Positions 788-32,645 are shown, counted from the stretch's first letter. The stretch is DNA of 64,000 nucleotides from Candidatus Pacearchaeota archaeon (GCA_017609205.1 JAFCEL010000001.1:86183-150182), one strand, 5' to 3'. The notes: a model not told the origin generated them from the sequence alone. Numbers and translations: made by a program.

Positions 788-829
788 AGATAAAAAAACA
801 AAAGAGGTTTTTAAGATATTTGCTATTTT

Positions 830-1408
830 TTAAGCAACCCTCTCTAATTGGTTTCTGATTTGCTTAGACCATTCTATGAGTAATTTTTTCATAGAGGTTC
901 TGTAAAGATAATTATATTCTGGTTTGGACATTCGTCTTTCTTCTATTTTGATTTGTAATTGAGCGACATGGTCATGTATAATTCCAGCAATATCCCAAAA
1001 GGGATCTGAATAGTCTGGATCATGAAATCTTGCTGCTTTGCTAATCTTTCTATAAACTGAATCTAAACTTCTTGTTCCATCAACAGGACAAACTTCTGAA
1101 TTTCTCTCATTACTATTGTAAATTCGGAGCTCAGTATCAGACATAGAATTTAATCTCTCTAGATTATTGAAAATTATTTTTCCTAATCGTATATTTCTCT
1201 CTGATTTTTGAACTGATTCAATCTGCTTGTCGAGATAATCTCTAATTCTTCCCATAACTGATAATAAAAAGAGTATTATTAAAAATATTGGTAATTTAGT
1301 ATATAAGTAATCCAAAAATTTAATATAACATATTGCGACTGCTGTTATACGCTCCTGACAGGGACGAAGATTGCAAAGCAATCCAAAAAGTTGGCGAAGG
1401 GACGCCAT
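830..1408 (-). CDS. hypothetical protein, probable N-terminal membrane anchor; start uncertain
   Basis: Long ORF. Its first ~30 codons lie in a G/C-rich, non-coding-looking patch (1325-1410). Likelier starts are TTG at 1315 or ATG at 1255. Confidence 0.45.
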   Translation of the reverse strand: MASLRQLFGLLCNLRPCQERITAVAICYIKFLDYLYTKLPIFLIILFLLSVMGRIRDYLDKQIESVQKSERNIRLGKIIFNNLERLNSMSDTELRIYNSNERNSEVCPVDGTRSLDSVYRKISKAARFHDPDYSDPFWDIAGIIHDHVAQLQIKIEERRMSKPEYNYLYRTSMKKLLIEWSKQIRNQLERVA

Positions 1409-1410
1409 GC

Positions 1411-1791
1411 TTATTTTCTTTTACGTTTGGAATACCAGTTGATAAAAATTATCCAATACATGAACAGCAATGCGACAATACTAATCCAGTATGGTTTTTC
1501 AAAAACTGGTTTTGGTAGTGTATTGAGATATGCTATTACACTTATTGTTACTATTACTGAGAGCATAGCAACAACAATTTTTCGCAGTTTGTCTTTTTCC
1601 ATTTTTGTTACCTCATTTGTTTTACTTTGATATAATTTGTATGCAGCCAATACGGCAAGGAAAACAATAGCCAATCCTGCAGAAATTTTTGGGTCAAGCA
1701 TTGCTGAAAGCAACACGAAGAAAACTGCTAAGATGGCAATTATACCTTCTGTTTTATTACTCATACTCATTTTATATTTATAATCTTTCAT
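1411..1791 (-). CDS. small integral membrane protein
   Basis: Three long hydrophobic segments in the translation and a basic C-terminal tail (SKRKRK). Confidence 0.55.
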   Translation of the reverse strand: MKDYKYKMSMSNKTEGIIAILAVFFVLLSAMLDPKISAGLAIVFLAVLAAYKLYQSKTNEVTKMEKDKLRKIVVAMLSVIVTISVIAYLNTLPKPVFEKPYWISIVALLFMYWIIFINWYSKRKRK

Positions 1792-2365
1792 TTTTCACTG
1801 CATAAATTGTCAAATGTTGTTCTGGTAAAAAATTGAATTCCTTTTCCAACAAATAACCTGCCTCTCCCATTTCTTGAATGATAGTTTCCTTAGGAATATA
1901 GTGTCCAAATAATCCACGGAAAGTGAAAATTTTACCTTTTTTATACTCAATGATAGCAATTCTCCCATCAGGTTTTAAAAATCGTTTTAGTTTCTTAAAA
2001 TACTCTACTCGATTTGGTATGTGATGGGTGACATTACGCATGAATATCAAATCTAAGCTTTTTTCAGGTAAATCTAATTTATCTCGTGATACAAGCGTTG
2101 GTATAACATTATTCAATCCTTTTTCTTTGGCATTGTTTTTAAGATACTCTAAAAATTCTGGCTTTGTATCAATAGCATAAACTCTTCCTCCTTCCCCCAC
2201 CATTTCGGCAAATCGCAGTGAAAAATAACCCCCTCCTGAACCAATATCTGCAATACTTTGACTAGGTTTTAATGCAATAGCTTCTATAATCTGGTCTGGC
2301 TTGTTTTTAGGGTCAGAAGCTTTTTTATTGAATATCTTAGCTTGAAAGTTTGCCATTTTCCTCAT
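1778..2365 (-). CDS. class I SAM-dependent methyltransferase
   Basis: Motif I DIGSGGGYF followed by the acidic loop YAIDT. Confidence 0.8.
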   Translation of the reverse strand: MRKMANFQAKIFNKKASDPKNKPDQIIEAIALKPSQSIADIGSGGGYFSLRFAEMVGEGGRVYAIDTKPEFLEYLKNNAKEKGLNNVIPTLVSRDKLDLPEKSLDLIFMRNVTHHIPNRVEYFKKLKRFLKPDGRIAIIEYKKGKIFTFRGLFGHYIPKETIIQEMGEAGYLLEKEFNFLPEQHLTIYAVKNERL

Positions 2366-2809
2366 TTCATAAATTAATTATTGTTTCTTTTAATATTTTT
2401 TTGTTTCAGGCATCCCGAAGCCGATTGCATAACATCGGGCTTAAAAGACCTGAGCATTGCGAAGGCTCGAAGTGATAAATTTTTTCCTCGAATTTGACCT
2501 TTGGAATGTAGCAAAGCGAAATGACGAGCGGAAAATTCAGAGCTGAAAAAATTTTGAACATTCGAGAGTTTTTCCGTAGGGAAAATTTGGGAAAACTCTG
2601 ACTTTTCCAAAAGATAACAAAGGAGTTTTCTTGTTAAAAGCTGTTCGCCGACCGACAAAGTCGGCACGAACTGACGCTACAGCGTCCTCGTGAATCACCG
2701 ATGAGTGGATGGTGGGTTGTTTGTCTAAAACCCAATGTATTTGAGAAATCGCCTTTTTTGCTTCTTTTTTTAAAAAGAAGATGGGGTTCCACTTTTTTGA
2801 TTTTTCAAA
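2366..2809. repeat. G/C-enriched non-coding island A (member of a 4-copy family)
   Basis: No credible ORF. Contains AATTTGGGAAAA (2584-2595) with a downstream TTTTCC partner, CCTCGTGAAT (2686-2695) and GGATGG (2707-2712). Has a terminal hairpin CTTCTTTTT/AAAAAGAAG followed by GGGGTTCCAC (2783-2792). Confidence 0.6.
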
Positions 2810-3057
2810 TTAATCCTTTCTTAGATATTCTAAACCTTTTTCAGTTATTTTTATCTGGAAATATGGTTTGCCACTTTTAGGATGTTTTTCTTTACTTTCT
2901 ATTTTAAGAAAACCATAAGATTCTAATTCTTTACAATTAGACCTTATAGTATTAAAACCAGTATTAACTTTTCTCTCAAGTTGAGCCAATGTCATAGGCG
3001 AAGATTTTATTAAACCTAAAATCTTCTTTTTATATCAAATGAGCTACGCTTGGACAT
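2810..3057 (-). pseudogene. winged-helix DNA-binding protein split by a 1-nt frameshift in a homopolymer run
   Basis: ATG at 3055-3057 reads MSKRSSFDIK and then stops. Adding one base to the T5 run at 3027-3031 fuses it to KKILGLIKSSPMTLAQLERKV... of ORF 2810..2995, giving an 82-aa wHTH-like protein. Confidence 0.5.
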
Positions 3058-3115
3058 ACTACAATAAAAGAGTAAGTCTTAAATATCCCAACTCATAATA
3101 TTATAGTAAGCTAAA

Positions 3116-4252
3116 ATGTCTCAAAAAGAAAATAAAAAATCAAGAAAGAAATTATGGTTGTGGATACTATCAATTATATTTATTGTTGGAGGAATGAGCA
3201 CTTTATCAGATTCTTTTTTTGCAGGAGTCTTTGCATTTGTGGCGGGTGCAATAATTTGTCCTCCAATTATTAATATTATTAAAGAAAAATCAGAGGGTAA
3301 AGCAAAAACTTGGATATTTGTAACTGCTTTTATTGTCTTAGTGTCTTTTAGTGGAATGGCTCTTCCAAATTCAGAGAATTTTCAAAAGGATATATCCTTG
3401 CCCTCAACAATAAACATTATCTCGGATGTTAACCTAACAATACCTGAAAATACAAAAGAAGCAATCTCTAAAACAGAAGTTTATAGATACTGGAGTAATA
3501 ATATAAATGATGGACAAAAAAAATTAACTCTTCTTCATTATAATAAAGAAAGATATGGAAAATTTCTGGAATATTTAGACTCACAAAATCTTAAAGAAGA
3601 TTTTAAAAGATTGTGTGGTAACGAATTAGTGCCTAAAGACATGCTTGTTTCTAATGAAAGGGGTCTCTTTCTCCATATTGGATTAGATGATGGATTTGCT
3701 GTATGTGACTTTGTTTCTGAAGAAATAACTTCTGAATTTGAAAATCAAGAAAATACAACTCAAAAACAAGCCCAACAAAAATGTATCCCTAATTGGAAAT
3801 GCGGAAAATGGACAATCTGTTCTAACGAAGTTCAAACAAGAATATGCACAGATAAGAATGATTGTGGAACCATTGAAGAAAAACCTATTGAAACCCAAAA
3901 TTGTAAAGATTATGATTTAGAGATGAGTATAGACGAACTATTAAATGAGTTTAGCGGATTAACAAAACTTCAGCAAGAAGAAAAAATTAAAGAATTAAAA
4001 GGTAAAAGAATAAAAACATCAACAACGGCTTATAAAATAGACAAAGCCTCACTTTCTACACAATATGTAGTTATGGATGATGATTATCTCTATCCATCTG
4101 TAAAAGCTTTCTTTCCTGCTGAAGAAAAAGATAAACTTCTAAAAGTAAATATTGGGGATAAGATAACATTCATCGGCGAGTTTGTTACATATAAACAAGG
4201 AACATATGTGCCTAGTTATGTTGAATTTACAAAGTCAAAATTGGTAGGTTAG
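3116..4252 (+). CDS. membrane-anchored protein with an extracellular Cys-rich module
   Basis: N-terminal hydrophobic helices. Contains the motif CIPNWKCGKWTICSNEVQTRICTDKNDCG. Confidence 0.6.
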   Translation: MSQKENKKSRKKLWLWILSIIFIVGGMSTLSDSFFAGVFAFVAGAIICPPIINIIKEKSEGKAKTWIFVTAFIVLVSFSGMALPNSENFQKDISLPSTINIISDVNLTIPENTKEAISKTEVYRYWSNNINDGQKKLTLLHYNKERYGKFLEYLDSQNLKEDFKRLCGNELVPKDMLVSNERGLFLHIGLDDGFAVCDFVSEEITSEFENQENTTQKQAQQKCIPNWKCGKWTICSNEVQTRICTDKNDCGTIEEKPIETQNCKDYDLEMSIDELLNEFSGLTKLQQEEKIKELKGKRIKTSTTAYKIDKASLSTQYVVMDDDYLYPSVKAFFPAEEKDKLLKVNIGDKITFIGEFVTYKQGTYVPSYVEFTKSKLVG

Positions 4253-4259
4253 ATATTAA

Positions 4260-4613
4260 ATGAAATTTGGTATTTCTGAAGAAGATGAGTTAAATATCCT
4301 AAAGGATTGGAGAGATAATTATTCTTATTCAAAAGTCCCTAAAAATCTTCAGAAAAAAGTTAAAGACCAACAGGCAGTAAATTTGTTAATGGAATTTACC
4401 AAAGATTCAGAGATTGATTATCAAAGAATTAGTAATAGGATAAAAGAACTTGAAGATAAAATTCAAAAAGAAAATCAAAAAGAAAAAGAGCAGAGTTTTT
4501 GGTATATTCTCAAAAAAGAATTTAAAGAAAAAGCTGCAAAGGCGATTGTTTGGGTTGTTATGAGTATTATTGGATTTATTCTAGGATTTTTAGTTAGTTA
4601 TTTCTTGAAATAA
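4260..4613 (+). CDS. hypothetical tail-anchored protein
   Basis: Charged coiled-coil-like body and a single C-terminal hydrophobic helix. It lies 7 nt after the upstream gene. Confidence 0.5.
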   Translation: MKFGISEEDELNILKDWRDNYSYSKVPKNLQKKVKDQQAVNLLMEFTKDSEIDYQRISNRIKELEDKIQKENQKEKEQSFWYILKKEFKEKAAKAIVWVVMSIIGFILGFLVSYFLK

Positions 4614-4980
4614 TGGAACCCCCAAAAAGTAATATCCGAAAAATTTGCGTGAGCTTTGTGAACCTCTTAACCTTTATTATACGAAATTTTAATTTCGTGA
4701 GTTTCTCCTAGGTCGGTTAAGAGAAGTAAATCCGAAGGATTTATTTCCCGAACTTTTCCTCGTGAGTGAAGAATGAACGAACAGGGCTGAAAAGTGAGGG
4801 CGTAGCGAACTGCAAGTGAGCAGAGTTTTAATCGCTGTTAGTAGAGTTTTTTCGCAGAAAAAACCGAGCCAGAATGCAATGTCCCGAAGGGCTGGCGAAG
4901 AGTAAAAATCAATTTTCAGGGAGGAATTTATTATCTTGCGTTCGCGATAAATTAATAAGTAAGATTTTCATATTAAAATT
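4614..4980. repeat. G/C-enriched non-coding island B
   Basis: Starts TGGAACCCC, the reverse complement of the island A terminus GGGGTTCCA. Contains CCTCGTGAGT (4758-4767). Hairpins include CGAAATT-tta-AATTTCG, AAATCC-gaa-GGATTT and CTCTTAACC...GGTTAAGAG. Confidence 0.6.
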
Positions 4981-5433
4981 ATGCAATTAAGAAAAGCAAC
5001 AGAACAGGACAAAAAAGAGGCAATAAAAATTGCACAAGATTTGAAAGAATGGTTTAATAAAGAAGGAATTAGAAATATGAAAACCGACTTCAAATTTAAC
5101 AATTTGGTCGTGATGAGAAATAAAGGCAAAGTTTCTGGATTTTTATGCTACACAACTAATTGCGGAAAAATGCAACTTATATGGATGGGTGTTGAAAAAG
5201 ATATGCAACAAAAAGGAATTGGAAAAAAACTTCTGAGATGGCTAGAAAAAGAAGCTAAAAAATATAAGTTGCATTCAATTGAAGTTGAAACTTTGCCTGA
5301 TGAAGATGATTACGAACCATACAAAAAAACTCGAGCTTTTTATTATAAAAATGGTTTCAAAAGAATATTATATAAAAAAGCGAGAGTTAAAGGGTGGGAT
5401 GACCAAATTGTTCTGGAGAAAAGAATAAAGTAA
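4981..5433 (+). CDS. GNAT-family N-acetyltransferase
   Basis: Acetyl-CoA-binding motif QQKGIGKKLLRWLEKEA and a size typical of GNAT proteins. Confidence 0.85.
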   Translation: MQLRKATEQDKKEAIKIAQDLKEWFNKEGIRNMKTDFKFNNLVVMRNKGKVSGFLCYTTNCGKMQLIWMGVEKDMQQKGIGKKLLRWLEKEAKKYKLHSIEVETLPDEDDYEPYKKTRAFYYKNGFKRILYKKARVKGWDDQIVLEKRIK

Positions 5434-5798
5434 GCGAGCTTTATCTTGGGTGGGCAAGAAAATTGATTTTTATTTCTACTAACATATGCGATTAAGCGAC
5501 CCGTAGGGCTCGAGCGGAACGGAGTGACCTCGAGAGTTCAAAATCTTTGATTTTGAATTTGGGAAAATTATGGCTTTTAAGAAAAAAGTGAGCGAATGCT
5601 AAAATAATTTTCCGCTTAATCTGCTGTTGCTTGACCGAACGAAGTGAGGCACGAGCTGGGCTAAAAAAAGCCCCTCGTGAGTTTTAATTTTTCTTTTCAG
5701 GTTGGGGGAGGAGGATGGTTTCTCCGACGACAAAAAAATTAGAGAGATTGCCCGCTCGTTTTTTGCTTCTTCTTTTCTAAAAAAGAAATTTGGGCACT
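5434..5798. repeat. G/C-enriched non-coding island C
   Basis: Contains GCGATTAAG (5488-5496), the CTCGAG-loop-CTCGAG hairpin, AATTTGGGAAAA (5556-5567), CCTCGTGAGT (5673-5682) and GGATGG (5713-5718). Has a terminal hairpin plus TTTGGGCAC. Confidence 0.6.
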
Positions 5799-5810
5799 TT
5801 ATCTTTGTTT
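5783..5810. repeat. left arm of an imperfect inverted repeat flanking the RiPP-like operon
   Basis: AAGAAATTTGGGCACTTTATCTTTGTTT. Its reverse complement matches 8298-8327 (14-nt exact core AAAGATAAAGTGCC, one mismatch, one 4-nt indel, then AAATTTCTT). Confidence 0.55.
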
Positions 5811-6464
5811 TAGATACTCAATACATTTTTTTAAAAGTTTTTCAAAATCTCTTTCTTTTTTCCATTTTTTTGAAATATAATTTCTCAGATTTCTCGTTTG
5901 TAAATATCCGACATCCTTAGCAAACCATAAATCTCTAAACTCCAAATTAAGCAAAACTGTTAAAGATTCATTAAGAAAGTTAAATTTGTCATCACCAAGG
6001 AGCCCCCTTAATCTATTCCCATAAGAATTATCAACATGAATATGAAACAACTCATGCCCACAAGTTCTTACTGCCTGTAGCAAAGGACGTTTCAATGAAA
6101 CTGTAAAAGAATTATCTTCATAATAAGCACATCTCCCAACAGTAGTAATGTAAGCGTCAAAATTTTCTAAAGAAATTTGCTTATTTGTAATCTTTTCTAA
6201 CCTATTAAAATACTCATCATTAATACTTTTCCAAGATTTATCCAAAGACTCTCTAAAAAATTCTATGTATGGGGATACATGCAATCTTTCTAAATTTTCC
6301 AATATTTCTCTTTTTGAATCCAAAAAAGATTTTCCTTTAAATGCCCGTATATAATTTGAGTTTAAATCTGTCTTCTCATCTTTCCAAGAACATTCATAAT
6401 TACATAATTGCCAAAAATTTAATGCATCTCTTTCCTTATCAAATTTAAAATTAAGCTTGCTCAT
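5799..6464 (-). CDS. HExxH-motif protein, putative zinc metallopeptidase
   Basis: CGHELFHIH motif. Last gene of the four-gene overlapping operon. Confidence 0.55.
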   Translation of the reverse strand: MSKLNFKFDKERDALNFWQLCNYECSWKDEKTDLNSNYIRAFKGKSFLDSKREILENLERLHVSPYIEFFRESLDKSWKSINDEYFNRLEKITNKQISLENFDAYITTVGRCAYYEDNSFTVSLKRPLLQAVRTCGHELFHIHVDNSYGNRLRGLLGDDKFNFLNESLTVLLNLEFRDLWFAKDVGYLQTRNLRNYISKKWKKERDFEKLLKKCIEYLKQR

Positions 6465-6984
6465 TTTTTAAAATTAAGAATATTAAATTATGTTTATGTG
6501 GAAGAAGATTTGAATGTTCTTCTATTTCTGTTTCACCTTGTAATTCTTTTTCTAATTTCCACCCTTCGTAAAAAGATAATATTTCTTCTTTTGTGGGAAA
6601 AAATTTCCCCTTACTTTTCATGCTATCTAAATTAGACATACAAATAATAAGGTTATATCCTCCATGTGAAGTTGAAGTTTTCATCTTTTCAAATAATTTG
6701 TGAATTTTATCTTTGTTGAAAAAATGCAAGATTAAAGAGGCAATTATTAAATCATTATCTTTTCCAAAATCTTCTGTTGTTATATCCCCCGATATAAATT
6801 CAAAATTTTTAAAGGCACCATCTTCAAAAGCATTCCTTTTATCAATTCCTTTCGCACTTATTCCTTTTCTGCTAAAAAATAAAGACATTAAACCTTTTCC
6901 GCATCCTAGATCCAAGACCTTTTTCAATTCTTTATTTTGAAAAAAATTCAAAAATTCACTTTTACTTTGTTTTATGTTTATCAT
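6451..6984 (-). CDS. class I SAM-dependent methyltransferase
   Basis: Motif I VLDLGCGKGLMS. Overlaps both neighbours. Confidence 0.75.
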   Translation of the reverse strand: MINIKQSKSEFLNFFQNKELKKVLDLGCGKGLMSLFFSRKGISAKGIDKRNAFEDGAFKNFEFISGDITTEDFGKDNDLIIASLILHFFNKDKIHKLFEKMKTSTSHGGYNLIICMSNLDSMKSKGKFFPTKEEILSFYEGWKLEKELQGETEIEEHSNLLPHKHNLIFLILKNEQA

Positions 6985-8065
6985 TTTCTAGATATTCCTT
7001 AAAGCACATTGGGTCTTTTGTCATATAATCCCTTGTTATTGCATAAGCTACTGCTCTGCATCCTCTGCAATGAACAACTTTGTCACATAAAGATTTTTCC
7101 CTTATTTTATTTAAATCTCTTAAATCTTGCATAACTTCACTTTCTAAAACTAAATTTCTAAAGCCTTCTTTAATGTTTCCTATAGGAATTGGGAGTCTTC
7201 TGCAAGGATACACTGTTCCATCAGAAAGAACGGAAAGCATTCTAAATCCTGCAGAACATCCACATAAATAAGTATTATTCTCTTTTGATTTTTTGATTAA
7301 ATCATTTTCTCCGTTTTGAAAAATTTGCCATAAAACATCGGATTGCAAAACAGTTATTTTTCCTTTATATTTTTCTACTAAACTATTTGTCTTTTTTAAC
7401 ATTTCATAAACCTCAAAGGAATTGACAAATTTAGGATCTTTCGCTCCCAATTTAGAATCTGGGACATAAGTTTTGAATCCGACTTTTTTAGCACCTGCAA
7501 GATAAGAGTTTTCAATTACTTCTTCAAATTCATCCATGTTTTGCTTCATTAAAGTCATTGCAGAAACAACAGAAATTCCTTCTCTTGAGGCATTACTTAT
7601 TCCTTCCATTGCTTTATCATAAGCGAATTTTCTTCCTCTTATTTTATTGTGAGTTTCTTTTGTTCCATCAATAGAAATTTGAATAGTATCAATTCCTCTC
7701 TCTTTAATTTCTTTTGCTTTTATAGGAGTAATTAATGTTCCATTTGTTAATAAATTAGTAATAACTTCTTGTTTTTGAGTATAATCAAAAATTTTTAGAT
7801 GATCCTTTCTCATTAAAGGTTCTCCCCCTGAGATTGCTATCCTTGGAATCATATCCCATCTTTCTGCAGTTTCTTTTAAATCATCTATCATTGAGAAAAC
7901 ATCTTCTAAACCCATAGGCTCTTTAAACTGTTTGTGGAATGAATTTCCTTCAGAACTATGATAACAATGAGAACACCTTAAATTACACCAATCTGTTGAG
8001 TCCCACTGCAAATAAAGATGTCTTTTTGCCATTTGTTGAAGAGGCAAATTTAATCTAAAAAACAA
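6962..8065 (-). CDS. radical SAM enzyme with C-terminal SPASM-type Cys cluster
   Basis: CNLRCSHCY (CX3CX2C) near the N-terminus. C-terminal CGCSAGF...DGTVYPC...GNI...CDKVVHCRGC...DPMC. The start may be the internal MAKRH at 8029. Confidence 0.9.
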   Translation of the reverse strand: MFFRLNLPLQQMAKRHLYLQWDSTDWCNLRCSHCYHSSEGNSFHKQFKEPMGLEDVFSMIDDLKETAERWDMIPRIAISGGEPLMRKDHLKIFDYTQKQEVITNLLTNGTLITPIKAKEIKERGIDTIQISIDGTKETHNKIRGRKFAYDKAMEGISNASREGISVVSAMTLMKQNMDEFEEVIENSYLAGAKKVGFKTYVPDSKLGAKDPKFVNSFEVYEMLKKTNSLVEKYKGKITVLQSDVLWQIFQNGENDLIKKSKENNTYLCGCSAGFRMLSVLSDGTVYPCRRLPIPIGNIKEGFRNLVLESEVMQDLRDLNKIREKSLCDKVVHCRGCRAVAYAITRDYMTKDPMCFKEYLENDKHKTK

Positions 8066-8256
8066 CCATCATCTGATGCACAAGCATCAGGACCACAAGC
8101 ATCACAAGGATCACAGTGATACTTATCTTTAGAAAGGTTGTATTTTTTCACCTCATCTCTTGGACCGTACTCTCTTACCTGATAAGGTAGGGGAGTCATA
8201 CCACTCAAAAAATCTACTTCTTTTGCTGTTAGCTCAAGTTTGTTTGATTTTTCCAT
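8050..8256 (-). CDS. candidate RiPP precursor peptide (68 aa)
   Basis: C-terminal HCDPCDACGPDACASDDGCFLD (5 Cys, 6 Asp) after a charged leader-like region. Its stop overlaps the radical SAM ORF. Confidence 0.6.
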   Translation of the reverse strand: MEKSNKLELTAKEVDFLSGMTPLPYQVREYGPRDEVKKYNLSKDKYHCDPCDACGPDACASDDGCFLD

Positions 8257-8673
8257 AAATCTTAAGAGTATTAAATCTTTTTAAGTTTTGTTATTGTAAA
8301 AAGATAAAGTGCCTAAATAAATTTCTTGCGTAGCAAGCTTATTTGTTTTTCTGAAAAAAACTAAGCGCACACCTCCTATCTGGGGCGGGTGGTCGGGGGA
8401 TGGCAAAAGACAATTTTATCATTCTTGAAAAATTATATTTAGCAAAGAACAAAGAAAGATTGGTGATTTATCCAAGCGAAAGCGAAGATAGATTTCAATT
8501 TGGACGCAGTCTGGGAACATCGCGATTAAGAGAAGTTTGCGGAACGAAGTGGAGCAAATTTGGGAAAATGCCGAGCTGAGTGTTTTTCCGTTTAAGCCCT
8601 GTTAAACTCCCCGAGCGTTAGCGAGAACGCAGCGTGGTCGAGGAGCGAAGCGACGCAGAATTTTCATATTTCA
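8257..8673. repeat. G/C-enriched non-coding island D
   Basis: Contains GGATGG (8398-8403), GCGATTAAG (8522-8530), the hairpin TTTGC-GGAACGAAGTGGA-GCAAA, AATTTGGGAAAA (8557-8568) and a GCGAAG-rich tail. Confidence 0.6.
8298..8327. repeat. right arm of the inverted repeat flanking the RiPP-like operon
   Basis: AAAAAGATAAAGTGCCTAAATAAATTTCTT. See 5783-5810. Confidence 0.55.
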
Positions 8674-9126
8674 TCATGGGTAATCCTTTAATCCCAAATA
8701 TTTAAATGATGAAAAATTATTTTCTTTGTCTATATTTAATTGTGATATTAATTCCTTAGGATAAAAAGTGACTTTGTCTAAATTTTCTAAATCTAATAGT
8801 TCGATGTCCTCAAGAAGAGCTTCTTTTTCTTCAGGATCAAAACCCTTTTTTAACTCCCCCCTATATTCCTCAACATAGAAATAAAATTCTATTCCCCTTC
8901 CTAGATCTTTATTTTTTAATTCTTTAATATAAACTAACTTTAATTTTAAAATGTCTAAATTTGTCTCTTCTTTTACTTCTCTTTTTATTGCTTCATAAAT
9001 GCCTTCTTCCATTTCTACTCCTCCACCAGGTAAAACATAATATGTAGATTCTTTTTTTGTCATTTTAGTAGTTAACAGCTTGCCATTATGTAGAATTATT
9101 GCAGCGACTCTTAAATTTGTTCTCAT
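8674..9126 (-). CDS. Nudix hydrolase
   Basis: Nudix box GGGVEMEEGIYEAIKREVKEETNL. Confidence 0.85.
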   Translation of the reverse strand: MRTNLRVAAIILHNGKLLTTKMTKKESTYYVLPGGGVEMEEGIYEAIKREVKEETNLDILKLKLVYIKELKNKDLGRGIEFYFYVEEYRGELKKGFDPEEKEALLEDIELLDLENLDKVTFYPKELISQLNIDKENNFSSFKYLGLKDYP

Positions 9127-9266
9127 TTTTCAAAATTTCTTATTTCATATTCGCAATTTAATTTTTTAAATTTCCAATCAGTATCCTATCTTTCATATTG
9201 CTAAGTAATCAAAATAATTTATAAACATTACAATTTGAAAATTAAGAAGTTATCTTCGAAAACAAG

Positions 9267-10085
9267 TCATTCCTCTAAGATCTCTGATTCTTCTTTTAAA
9301 TCCCTATAAGGATCTCCATTATGCTTCAAGAATGTTTCTTTTAACCAGATATGAATTTCACCAAAATGTTGATCCTGTTCAAGCCAGATTTTTTTTGAAT
9401 TTTCAAGATGAAGAAGCGGAGAAAAGGAAGCTATTTTCTCGTTTTTATCTCCTTTAACAAATTCTGTAAAGGAAACTTTAACATGATTCTTGTTCTTTCC
9501 AAAATAGAGAATAAGTGTTTTATGAATTGATTTGATTTTGTCCCTTATGCTGAATTTTTTCTTTGGAAGGGAAAATCCTGTTTCTCTAAGAGCATTTCTG
9601 TTTATGATTCTTTTTTTGATTCTGCGATTTTCTGTATTAATCGCCTTATTTAATGCTGCCATTAATTCCTTTAAGGTCACTCTTTTATAACGAGGGATTG
9701 GGCTTCTTAAGAGCAGTTCTGGAATTTCTTCTTCTAACTCAATTCTTTCCATTGAATATTTCTTTTCTTCTTTTTTCCCAAACAAAATTTCATCTATACT
9801 CTTAATATACTTATTAAGTAGAATTTCTGATTTTATCCTCAGAAGGAGAGACGCTGCCAGAAGAACTTTACTTGATATAAAAAAATCTGCTTCTTCATAT
9901 TCCTTTAGTTTTTCAAGATATTTATCAGACAGAACTATTATATTAACATCCCATGGGTTAAGTTGCTCTGTATTTATTAAGTCATAAATTATATCCTTCC
10001 ACCCAATCTCTCTGCTAAACAAAATCTTTTGTATTTGCTCTTGAGATACAGATTTTTTAATATCCTCTTTTGAAATATTCCTCAT
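9267..10085 (-). CDS. scpA: segregation and condensation protein A (kleisin)
   Basis: N-terminal NPWDVNIIVLSDKYLEKL...LLAASLLLRIKSEILL pattern. An ScpB gene is also present in the window. Confidence 0.7.
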   Translation of the reverse strand: MRNISKEDIKKSVSQEQIQKILFSREIGWKDIIYDLINTEQLNPWDVNIIVLSDKYLEKLKEYEEADFFISSKVLLAASLLLRIKSEILLNKYIKSIDEILFGKKEEKKYSMERIELEEEIPELLLRSPIPRYKRVTLKELMAALNKAINTENRRIKKRIINRNALRETGFSLPKKKFSIRDKIKSIHKTLILYFGKNKNHVKVSFTEFVKGDKNEKIASFSPLLHLENSKKIWLEQDQHFGEIHIWLKETFLKHNGDPYRDLKEESEILEE

Positions 10086-32367: not shown

Positions 32368-32645
32368 GGGGGATTGTAATGTAGACCAGGTCGGCGGGTT
32401 AGCCCTCCGCCAATTGCAAATGGGCTTTAGGCAGACTGCAAGGAAGTCGGTGATAGGAGCGTTGGAGAAGTCTTTGTTCGGACGTTGACGTTTTGTCCTT
32501 CTCGACCTTGCAGATGCGAACTGGGTCAGGCCTTGACCGGAGCAGCCCTAAACATTTGTTAAGGTGCTTGAAGGGTAGCAGAACCGAGGAAGAACAGAGG
32601 TAGCTTTTTCAACTATCCTTGAGCTGGCTTTCGGGTCTACACTAA
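32368..32645 (+). ncRNA. signal recognition particle RNA (archaeal 7S)
   Basis: G/C-rich island. 5' TGTAAT Alu-domain motif. GGGTCAGGCC...CCGGAGCAGCC S-domain-like motif. 5' GTAGACC pairs with 3' GGTCTAC. TTTAAATA box upstream. Ends are approximate. Confidence 0.7.

Follow-up and report, generated by a model that had tools for sequence, protein, structure and literature searches.

Inverted repeats bracketing a peptide-maturation operon in an integron-like cassette array of a Candidatus Pacearchaeota archaeon

Background

In bacterial chromosomal integrons such as the Vibrio superintegron, with its VCR (Vibrio cholerae repeat) attC sites, recombination proceeds through a folded single strand and the distal R' part of each site belongs to the next cassette. 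To our knowledge, complementarity that is private to a bacterial cassette is confined to the 7-nt R boxes. A folded single-stranded site is also found in CTX phage, whose attP is recombined at dif by XerCD, a Xer-family enzyme without the IntI domain. Integrons in Archaea were first reported in 2022 (Ghaly et al. 2022, Sci Adv, PMC9668308); some were in Nanoarchaeota, most were reported as clusters of attC sites lacking integrases (CALINs), and the survey counted six IntIs for 539 attC sites. Here we describe an integron-like cassette array in a 64,000-nt stretch (JAFCEL010000001.1:86183-150182; hereafter the window) of the genome of a Candidatus Pacearchaeota archaeon (GCA_017609205.1), and in particular an operon for a ribosomally synthesized and post-translationally modified peptide (RiPP) whose two ends carry imperfect inverted repeats (IRs). 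With moderate confidence, we read the two arms as an IR private to the integron-type cassette that carries the operon, forming the outer tier of a folded recombination region and pairing in a single-stranded intermediate.

Like the archaeal integrons already described (PMC9668308), the locus has cassette arrays with folded, imperfectly palindromic attC sites bearing AAC/GTT triplets, and it occurs in a DPANN lineage, as do the Nanoarchaeota examples; most of the arrays there had no canonical IntI. Unlike those integrons, one array here has beside it a XerA-type enzyme without the IntI-specific insertion, the spacers are 360-440 nt long with extra conserved elements (element E and pre-attC hairpins, see below), and the cassettes can carry entire operons that bring their own promoters and may point either way. 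Private IRs of 12-15 nt bracket the cargo here, whereas the term "inverted repeat" is absent from the text of PMC9668308. The R''/R' logic and the homogeneity of attC sites within an array are shared with Vibrio-type integrons; unlike in the bacterial systems, complementarity runs 12-15 nt further, sometimes after branch hairpins. Elements that exploit Xer enzymes, such as CTX phage, likewise combine a Xer-family recombinase lacking the IntI domain with a single-strand hairpin (a role that adjacency alone suggests for XerA here), but they integrate singly at dif and form no arrays with cassette logic, and neither a dif site nor phage genes are involved at this locus. A non-exhaustive search of the literature found nothing on XerA-linked arrays or cargo-bracketing repeats, and no description of cassette-private IRs for integron cassettes.

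Inverted repeats at the ends of the operon

The genome (527 kb, 32% GC, 88% complete, DPANN) is nearly closed and comprises two contigs, of which C1 is one. Coordinates given without a contig name are those of the window; compared loci, genomes and contigs carry L, G and C numbers. The arms are:

8298-8327, right (operon-upstream) IR arm, conserved in L172, L005 and L030
5783-5810, left (operon-downstream) IR arm, conserved in L172, L030 and L040

The reverse complement of 5783-5810 is AAACAAAGATAAAGTGCCCAAATTTCTT, and 8298-8327 reads AAAAAGATAAAGTGCCTAAATAAATTTCTT. The two share an exact 14-nt core, AAAGATAAAGTGCC, followed by one mismatch, a 4-nt indel and AAATTTCTT, letter for letter as given in the initial annotation; a gap-free repeat finder returns them as a 28-nt pair with 82% complementarity. 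The operon lies on the minus strand. As first annotated, the left arm contains the stop codon of the operon's last gene (5799-5801), together with the final three codons (KQR) of this 221-aa gene. The end of the right arm is 42 nt from the ATG of the precursor peptide (8256), close to the earlier estimate of about 45 nt, and its core, GGCACTTTATCTTT in minus-strand reading, occupies -57 to -44 relative to that ATG. A T6 run follows the left arm on the minus strand, and T-runs are found in or beside both arms, with a T-run hairpin on the outer flank of each. A search for further copies of the repeat and for target-site duplications had been suggested. The core occurs only twice in the genome, once per strand and both times at these arms, and no target-site duplication lies beside the arms, where the outer sequences (...ttttctaaaa and gcgtagcaag...) differ.

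In local alignments of the two ~120-nt flanks, the observed score was reached 11 times in 5000 dinucleotide shuffles and 8 times in 5000 random genomic placements. Judged from the window alone, the pair is of modest significance (p~0.002), because 14-mer IRs are common in an AT-rich genome: on contig C1, exact IR pairs of at least 14 nt at a spacing of 300-5000 nt number 100. A chance match would be helped by this abundance, and by the ~60 gene blocks per window against which the local p has to be set. Coincidence is nonetheless scarcely credible: both arms are conserved in another genus beside a different operon, the opposite arm is a better fit to the arm of L005 than to its counterpart in the window, and the arrangement recurs in other cassettes. 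It is only through such comparison with other loci that the pair becomes convincing.

In L172, a close strain, arms and context are identical. In L005 (Pacearchaeota Meg22_1214_Bin_270) the operon stands in another chromosomal context, with 85.6% identity over 8394 to 6418; this locus keeps the right arm and is without the 221-aa gene (P221) and the left arm, its homology running 67 nt beyond the right arm and ending 600 nt short of the left. Its upstream arm fits the downstream arm of the window along 24 nt, with a single gap of 3 nt. The operon segment of L005 is bounded by a 17-bp direct repeat, GTTACACTAAAAATCAA (L005 4566-4582 and 6607-6623), and its P221 gene breaks off after codon 16, precisely at a G|TT; these ends look like the outcome of recombination at a secondary site. 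L030 (G136:C127), from another genus, has a different precursor and radical S-adenosylmethionine (rSAM) enzyme and a P221 homologue that is 44% identical, within the same 5' and 3' frames. Both its arms read GGGCAC[A/T]TTATCTTT, and homology runs beyond both of them to attC halves at the two contig ends.

An exact pattern search throughout the family gave 13 matches against 5 for a reversed control. The real homologues outside the genome itself were in G136, G261 (L005) and G464 (L040), and paired arms were seen only in the own genome and G136. No operon-flanking IRs were found in the distant operon relatives L025, L019, L020, L018 and L024. A metagenome-wide scan with GGGCACWTTATCTTT was discarded: at least 120 stretches had one match each, in unrelated soil, gut and marine contigs, the 15-mer being too short there. 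None of the few matches extended to a 21-mer with 2 mismatches had the 5' module, and the one spot-checked, L072, is unrelated bacterial DNA.

Other structures were also considered for the arms. A bulge-helix-bulge splicing motif was rejected on its internal loop, 5x1 nt instead of 3-4-3, and a split attC whose loop holds the operon was rejected because neither AAC nor GTT stands at the required positions. Pairing of the arms within the operon transcript is considered unlikely: in the direction of transcription the best TFB recognition element (BRE)/TATA comes after the right arm, and just upstream of that arm is a T7 hairpin.

attC-like sites and cassette logic

Four GC-richer spacers of the window (2366-2809, 4614-4980, 5434-5798 and 8257-8673) share repeats with a second region, C1:371.9-391.5 kb (the main array). 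When aligned, the family of sites reads (GGGTCG)nTAAC-A-GCGATTAAGAG ahead of a variable loop rich in hairpins and CTTCTCTTAATCGC-nAT-GTTnnnn after it, or in general form nnnnAAC-A-GCGATTAAGAG ... CTCTTAATCGC-nAT-GTTnnnn. By alignment and folding these are imperfect R''-L''...L'-R' repeats with AAC and GTT, forming a hairpin with an unpaired spacer, as in attC sites. In single-stranded DNA folds of the sites a1, a3 and w2 (z = -3.1 to -5.8), a 3-nt bulge interrupts the pairing of R''L'' with L'R'. All attC-like sites of an array point the same way, and the L'' boxes of a2 and w1 are degenerate. A generic scan of the genome for AAC...GTT hairpins was noisy in AT-rich DNA, and GC-containing L boxes stood out only in the two arrays. 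The window array contains:

815-9230, minus strand, accessory island (cassette array) of 8.4 kb between Dph6-like and ScpA-like genes
8512-8609, minus strand, attC-like site w1: R'' GAGTTTAAC, L' CTCTTAATCGC, R' GTTCCCA; degenerate L'' box
8361-8370, minus strand, relic R' GTGCGCTTAG, corresponding to GTTGCTTGG, the complement of the cassette's own R'' CAAGCAAC
5636-5787, minus strand, element E, a conserved 150-nt spacer between 3' arm and attC, with a CACGAG...CTCGTG hairpin and a terminal T-run hairpin at 5770-5787
5476-5633, minus strand, attC-like site w2, the RiPP cassette's own: R'' CAAGCAAC, L''/L' AGCAGATTAAGCG/CGCTTAATCGC, R' GTTAGTAG; hairpin fold of -26.3 kcal/mol, z = -5.8
4703-4844 (start approximate, ~4703), minus strand, attC-like site w3: R'' CTACTAAC, complementary to w2 R' GTTAGTAG; own R' degenerate
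2427-2649, minus strand, attC-like site w4: R'' GGCGAAC, R' GTTATGC

If integration takes place at G|TT of R', the part of the circle 3' of the crossover would become the 5' end of the linear cassette, and for that reason the R'' of a cassette would complement the cassette's own start. Such complements were found at successive sites: attI-like GTTAAAC with a1 R'' GTTTAAC, a1 GTTATCC with a2 GGATAAC, a2 GTTCGCC with a2b GGCGAAC, a4 GTTAAGTTC with a5 GAACTTAAC and, in the window, w2 with w3 as listed. In all there are five perfect complements of 7-9 nt and one match of 6/8 among ~12 junctions, and the same logic is seen in G136:C8. By alignment with L005, L173 and main-array site a3, the RiPP cassette probably had its original 5' end at the relic R' (8361-8370). 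Further copies of element E occur at C1:386689-386829, C1:390011-390075 and in G290:C50, with compensatory changes between copies in its inner stem.

On the minus strand, the RiPP cassette runs from w1 R' (8518), or from the decayed R' (8370), to w2 R' (5483). This places the right arm ~40-200 nt within the 5' limit of the cassette. Between the left arm and R'' (5633) stands element E, 150 nt long, and the attC-like boundary is ~150-300 nt outward of the left arm. The arms thus lie within the cassette, off its recombination boundaries. They had been proposed as terminal inverted repeats; the IR proves to be a recurrent, non-random cassette feature (see below), but the arms are not supported as the ends of a mobile unit, since the attC-like boundaries are farther out and homology overruns the arms.

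The island is absent from two genomes of the same genus, in which its flanking genes are 195 bp (G469:C27) and 52 bp (G290:C55) apart, and the same operon is found in other chromosomal contexts in L005 and L173. These observations bear out the proposal that the operon is on mobilised DNA. The Dph6-like and ScpA-like genes are adjacent in G290; the corresponding position in G469 has a GC-rich relic of 140 nt. An A-rich intergenic motif of ~30 nt is present on both sides of the island (787-830 and 9127-9260).

A XerA-type recombinase beside the main array

The only PF00589 tyrosine recombinase of the genome (C1:370946-371764, minus strand, 272 aa) is encoded at the head of the main array, which is ~20 kb long and extends to about C1:391.5 kb. 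An attI-like sequence, GATTAAAAGGT-GTTAAAC, is located 55 nt from its start codon, the two lying in C1:370946-372080 (L001 4946-6080), and the R'' of the first cassette is GTTTAAC, so that here a recombinase gene stands beside an attI-like site and a co-oriented array. The layout of XerA gene, attI-like site and cassette is repeated in another genus (G136:C8, L171). The recombinase passes the XerA_Arch model (234.5 bits, cut-off 220), and its best solved relative is XerA (PDB 4A8E). It falls below the cut-off of the IntI model TIGR02249 (179 bits in two stretches vs 265). VchIntIA (PDB 2A3V) was matched in two stretches as well, the listed one aligning query 196-270 with chain 243-318; such a split fits an enzyme that lacks the IntI-specific insertion just ahead of query 196-270.

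On the ground of adjacency, the sole one, we infer that this neighbouring XerA-type enzyme is the cassette recombinase. The initial annotation had seen no transposase or recombinase, which holds for the window, and a recombinase exists elsewhere in the genome. Having none of its own, the window array is CALIN-like, and a XerA beside an attI-like site may be the missing integrase of archaeal CALINs. The single serine recombinase of the genome is encoded at C1:310416-311288 (Resolvase domain, E = 1.9e-41), 220 kb from the array.

Private inverted repeats in other cassettes

IR arms also bracket the cargo of other cassettes in the window and in the main array:

5458-5472, second arm of the GNAT acetyltransferase cassette, beginning 11 nt after the G of w2 R'
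4903-4917, arm of the GNAT acetyltransferase cassette, a private exact 15-nt sequence, TAAAAATCAATTTTC; partner 5458-5472
4614-4622, partner arm of the 2810-4613 cargo, TGGAACCCC
2783-2792, arm of 9-10 nt, GGGGTTCCA, bracketing the 2810-4613 cargo; partner 4614-4622
Cassette M3, private arm TTTAATTTGGTGC
Cassette M4, private arm GGGCAGGGGCTTTT
Cassette M5, private arm TTTGCCCCAGAGTCC
Cassette M7b (second rSAM RiPP cassette), private arm GAAATAATCTTTTTT

The weaker TGGAACCCC pair, already noticed in the initial annotation, is present on the minus strand at 2783-2791 and on the plus strand at 4614-4622, and this 9-mer occurs 5 times genome-wide. With its exception, each private arm sequence has exactly 2 occurrences in the genome. 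M4 (C1:374177-379697) is a 5.5-kb cassette with an apparent restriction-modification system and a small AbrB-like gene; its 14-nt private arms are accompanied by a second, inner complementary segment of 13 bp.

The ends of 13 cassettes were compared for their longest complementary match, taking up to 260 nt after R' and up to 330 nt before R''. The matches were 15, 10, 13, 14, 15, 9, 9, 10, 12, 8, 14, 15 and 11 nt. Matches of at least 13 nt were found in 6 of the 13 cassettes vs 7 of 156 mismatched pairings (mean 9.0 nt), which corresponds to a permutation p of 2.5e-4, and the observed sum was reached in none of 20,000 permutations. A direct-repeat control gave 1 of 13 cassettes. The positions of the arms are regular: the 5' arm begins 11 nt after R' in M3, M5 and W3, the distance from the end of the 3' arm to R'' is 39-58 nt or 152-159 nt, and the 3' arm of the GNAT cassette is directly 5' of the pre-attC region. 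In homologous RiPP frames the two arms have changed in concert. W2 and L030 have GGCACTTT|ATCTTT with AAAGAT|AAAGTGCC, and M7b has GAAATA|ATCTTT with AAAGAT|TATTTC; the outer half is changed in both arms and the inner half (ATCTTT/AAAGAT) is kept.

In a version of the initial proposal shifted to cargo units, arms and cargo might instead form a mobile or insertable module of their own, with the arms as its terminal IRs, made or carried at each capture, that inserts into pre-existing attC scaffolds. We consider this main rival rather unlikely, although several features speak for it. Identical scaffolds hold unrelated arms and cargo: M3 and W3 have a common attC type, an 11-nt GAAA leader and the CTCTTCGCC pre-attC region, yet their arms and cargo are unrelated, and M4 and L173 have the leader GTTGCTTGGCTTCGCCCAAATTTTT in common with different arms and cargo. 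In M7, the conserved 5' frame of a RiPP cassette is broken by a nuclease gene that GGGCGG(G)CTTTT brackets, and a second IR-bracketed unit comes next after an attC-free gap. The arms also stand exactly at the border of conserved scaffold and unique DNA. Short IRs at both ends of an accessory gene block are a likeness to transposons and to miniature inverted-repeat transposable elements. Unlike in such elements, every arm pair here is single-copy, no target-site duplications are found, homology blocks between genomes do not stop at the arms, and the arms differ between units, leaving no common recognition sequence. A search of the whole genome gave zero DDE transposase matches (PF01609, DDE_Tnp_1) and no TnpB-type match (PF07282) above cut-off, other families not having been searched. 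Within the operon itself, only the precursor, the rSAM enzyme, the methyltransferase and the HExxH protein are encoded. Arm sequences vary from cassette to cassette, and one transposase or invertase could not recognise them all; the arms would not be recognition sequences for either kind of enzyme.

The proposal of an invertible segment, in which the arms are crossover sites and a recombinase or homologous recombination flips the operon, is very improbable. The repeats are indeed inverted, cargo orientation relative to the array varies among cassettes (it is reversed for the GNAT gene and for the cargo of M5), and the genome encodes one serine and one tyrosine recombinase. However, the orientation of the operon relative to the conserved 5' and 3' frames is identical in the window, L172, L174, L173, L030 and L031; inversion would not switch expression, because the promoter is inside the IR; seven different, private arm sequences cannot all serve one site-specific invertase; and the serine recombinase is far from the array. 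Constant orientation and context, together with an IR found nowhere else, had been named beforehand as evidence against a mobile or invertible cassette: the orientation is constant in these six homologues, and the context differs in L005 and L173.

A folded recombination region

In the favoured reading, that of a cassette-private IR, the arms would prolong the private R''/R' complementarity of the cassette, one arm lying shortly after the crossover and the other just ahead of element E and attC. In the excised single-stranded circle they would pair as the outermost helix, closing leader, E and attC into one module, and integration of the circle at G|TT would split the pair apart. Alternatively, pairing across the cargo within the array could bring the two flanking attC sites together. 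In either case we infer that pairing of the arms in single-stranded DNA would aid recombination. When the circular junctions were folded as single-stranded DNA, z was -8.2 for M3, -10.6 for M5, -7.5 for M4 and -4.5 for W2. The arms make up an outer helix able to stack with the R and L stems, and inside it come small branch hairpins, then the R stem (9 bp in M5), then the L stem. As complementarity dictates the pairing of the arms in such folds, this pairing is no independent evidence.

Besides this circularity, several observations weigh against the reading. An IR of at least 12 nt is missing from six of the 13 cassettes, the arms of M1 are inside an open reading frame (ORF) and may be due to chance, and no clear arms were seen in the G176:C22 array, which has another attC type. 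In the RiPP cassette the arms would close a loop of ~520 nt. The two IR-bracketed units of M7 stand in tandem without an attC between them, an arrangement that would fit arms travelling with cargo better than arms belonging to attC. The IntI-specific additional domain around patch III is not found in the recombinase, and the cassette boundaries were drawn by eye from motifs. Among members of the operon family the IR has decayed with no compensating changes: L174 keeps attC and a P221 that is 82% identical while its arms are decayed (p = 0.095), complementarity is weak or absent in L173 (p = 0.047) and L175 (p = 0.58), which are 67% and 65% identical and located between housekeeping genes, and L031 has largely lost the IR. 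Since the arms are decayed or weak in L174, L173 and L175, the IR is not required by the operon itself.

A more tentative extension of the cassette-private reading is that Pacearchaeal cassette arrays represent a distinct integron-like branch, in which the host's XerA-type recombinase, lacking the IntI-specific domain, acts as integrase at an attI-like site next to its own gene and the fold has three tiers (L stem, R stem and a private clamp helix), the arms being kept complementary by selection or by panhandle-type repair. The clamp helix would exist only in the excised single-stranded circle, or would synapse two neighbouring attC sites in the array.

Genes and promoter of the RiPP operon

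The operon has the following elements, in order of transcription:

8277-8289, minus strand, candidate BRE/TATA AAAAC-TTAAAAAG, at -33 to -21 from the ATG, a leaderless-type spacing; fits the tRNA promoter consensus
8050-8256, minus strand, precursor peptide of 68 aa with the Cys/Asp-rich C-terminus HCDPCDACGPDACASDDGC; homologues in L005 and L172-L176
6962-8032, minus strand, rSAM/SPASM maturase (Pfam Radical_SAM 4.7e-28, and SPASM)
6451-6984, minus strand, TehB-like S-adenosylmethionine-dependent methyltransferase, identified by profile matches
5799-6464, minus strand, P221, a putative metallopeptidase of 221 aa with an HExxH motif (HELFH) and a weak SprT-like match

A short Cys-rich precursor beside an rSAM enzyme with CxxxCxxC and a SPASM domain is the arrangement of an rSAM/SPASM RiPP cluster. 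The precursor has zero matches in Pfam or NCBIfam, and the operon reaches the cut-off of no specific NCBIfam equivalog. The maturase likely starts at the ATG at 8032, as in its homologues, rather than at the TTG at 8065 given by the ORF finder. Its nearest NCBIfam model is that of the ACGX-system rSAM enzymes (TIGR04340), and as in ACGX-type systems a Cys-rich precursor with an ACG motif (DACGPDAC) stands beside an rSAM/SPASM maturase; unlike them, the match scores 183 bits vs a cut-off of 400 and the operon adds the TehB-like methyltransferase and the HExxH protein. P221 is present in 57 of 401 genomes of the order, mostly without this rSAM enzyme. DNA conservation of its C-terminal CIEYLK motif and the adjoining non-coding bases is far above that of the remainder of the gene, a pattern that suggests recombination within the gene.

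The genome holds further rSAM RiPP cargo. A second, unrelated cassette, at C1:384331-386838, encodes a Cys-rich precursor of 72 aa, an rSAM/SPASM enzyme and a PqqD-like protein of 85 aa, and its HExxH gene is disrupted; the cassette has its 5' frame and element E in common with the window operon. L030 and L031 represent a third type of rSAM RiPP cassette.

The promoter consensus AAAnC-TTTTTAAA was derived from the regions upstream of this genome's tRNA genes. The candidate BRE/TATA that fits it is conserved in L005, L030, L031, L173 and L174, and its position at -33 to -21 places the right-arm core outside the likely transcript. The arms could be look-alike transcription signals, the upstream one an activator or operator site or an insulating terminator 5' of the BRE/TATA, the downstream one part of an oligo-T terminator or an inward antisense terminator. 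This explanation, which we rate as unlikely and below that of an insertable module, draws on the location of the right-arm core directly upstream of a well-conserved promoter, on the T-runs at both arms with T-run hairpins outside each, and on the ~90% conservation of the 75 nt upstream of the ATG between otherwise different operons. But 14-24 nt of mutual complementarity is needless for terminators or activator sites, the promoter is kept in L174, L173 and L175 though the arms decay, and at the same attC-relative positions other cassettes, whose genes are unrelated and may point either way, show arms of unrelated sequence.

Hairpins of the islands and neighbouring features

The spacers (2366-2809, 4614-4980, 5434-5798 and 8330-8673) and C1:371.9-391.5 kb are dense in small hairpins with TTCG, GAAA and GTGA-type loops, for example GTCC-TTCG-GGAC and AAATCC-TTCG-GGATTT. 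Loop motifs of these types are stable in RNA, and such hairpins may leave room for an RNA-level role of the islands. The islands had no match in Rfam, searched over the whole window at gathering threshold and over 2300-9300 at E<=1. Elsewhere in the window, the archaeal genes S24e, S27ae, Spt4 and RpoE' are encoded at 10-12 kb, and the Rfam model of the bacterial small signal recognition particle RNA matches 32489-32585 with 40.8 bits vs a gathering score of 40, which is probably the conserved core of the archaeal RNA.

Implications

Two arrays and one XerA-type tyrosine recombinase at the integrase position in a single DPANN genome make the mover of archaeal cassettes directly testable. If the arms do pair, they would extend the concept of a structure-specific recombination site, with a possible bearing on the unsolved problem of cassette formation. 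A whole RiPP operon, together with its own promoter, travels here as cassette cargo among tiny symbiotic archaea.

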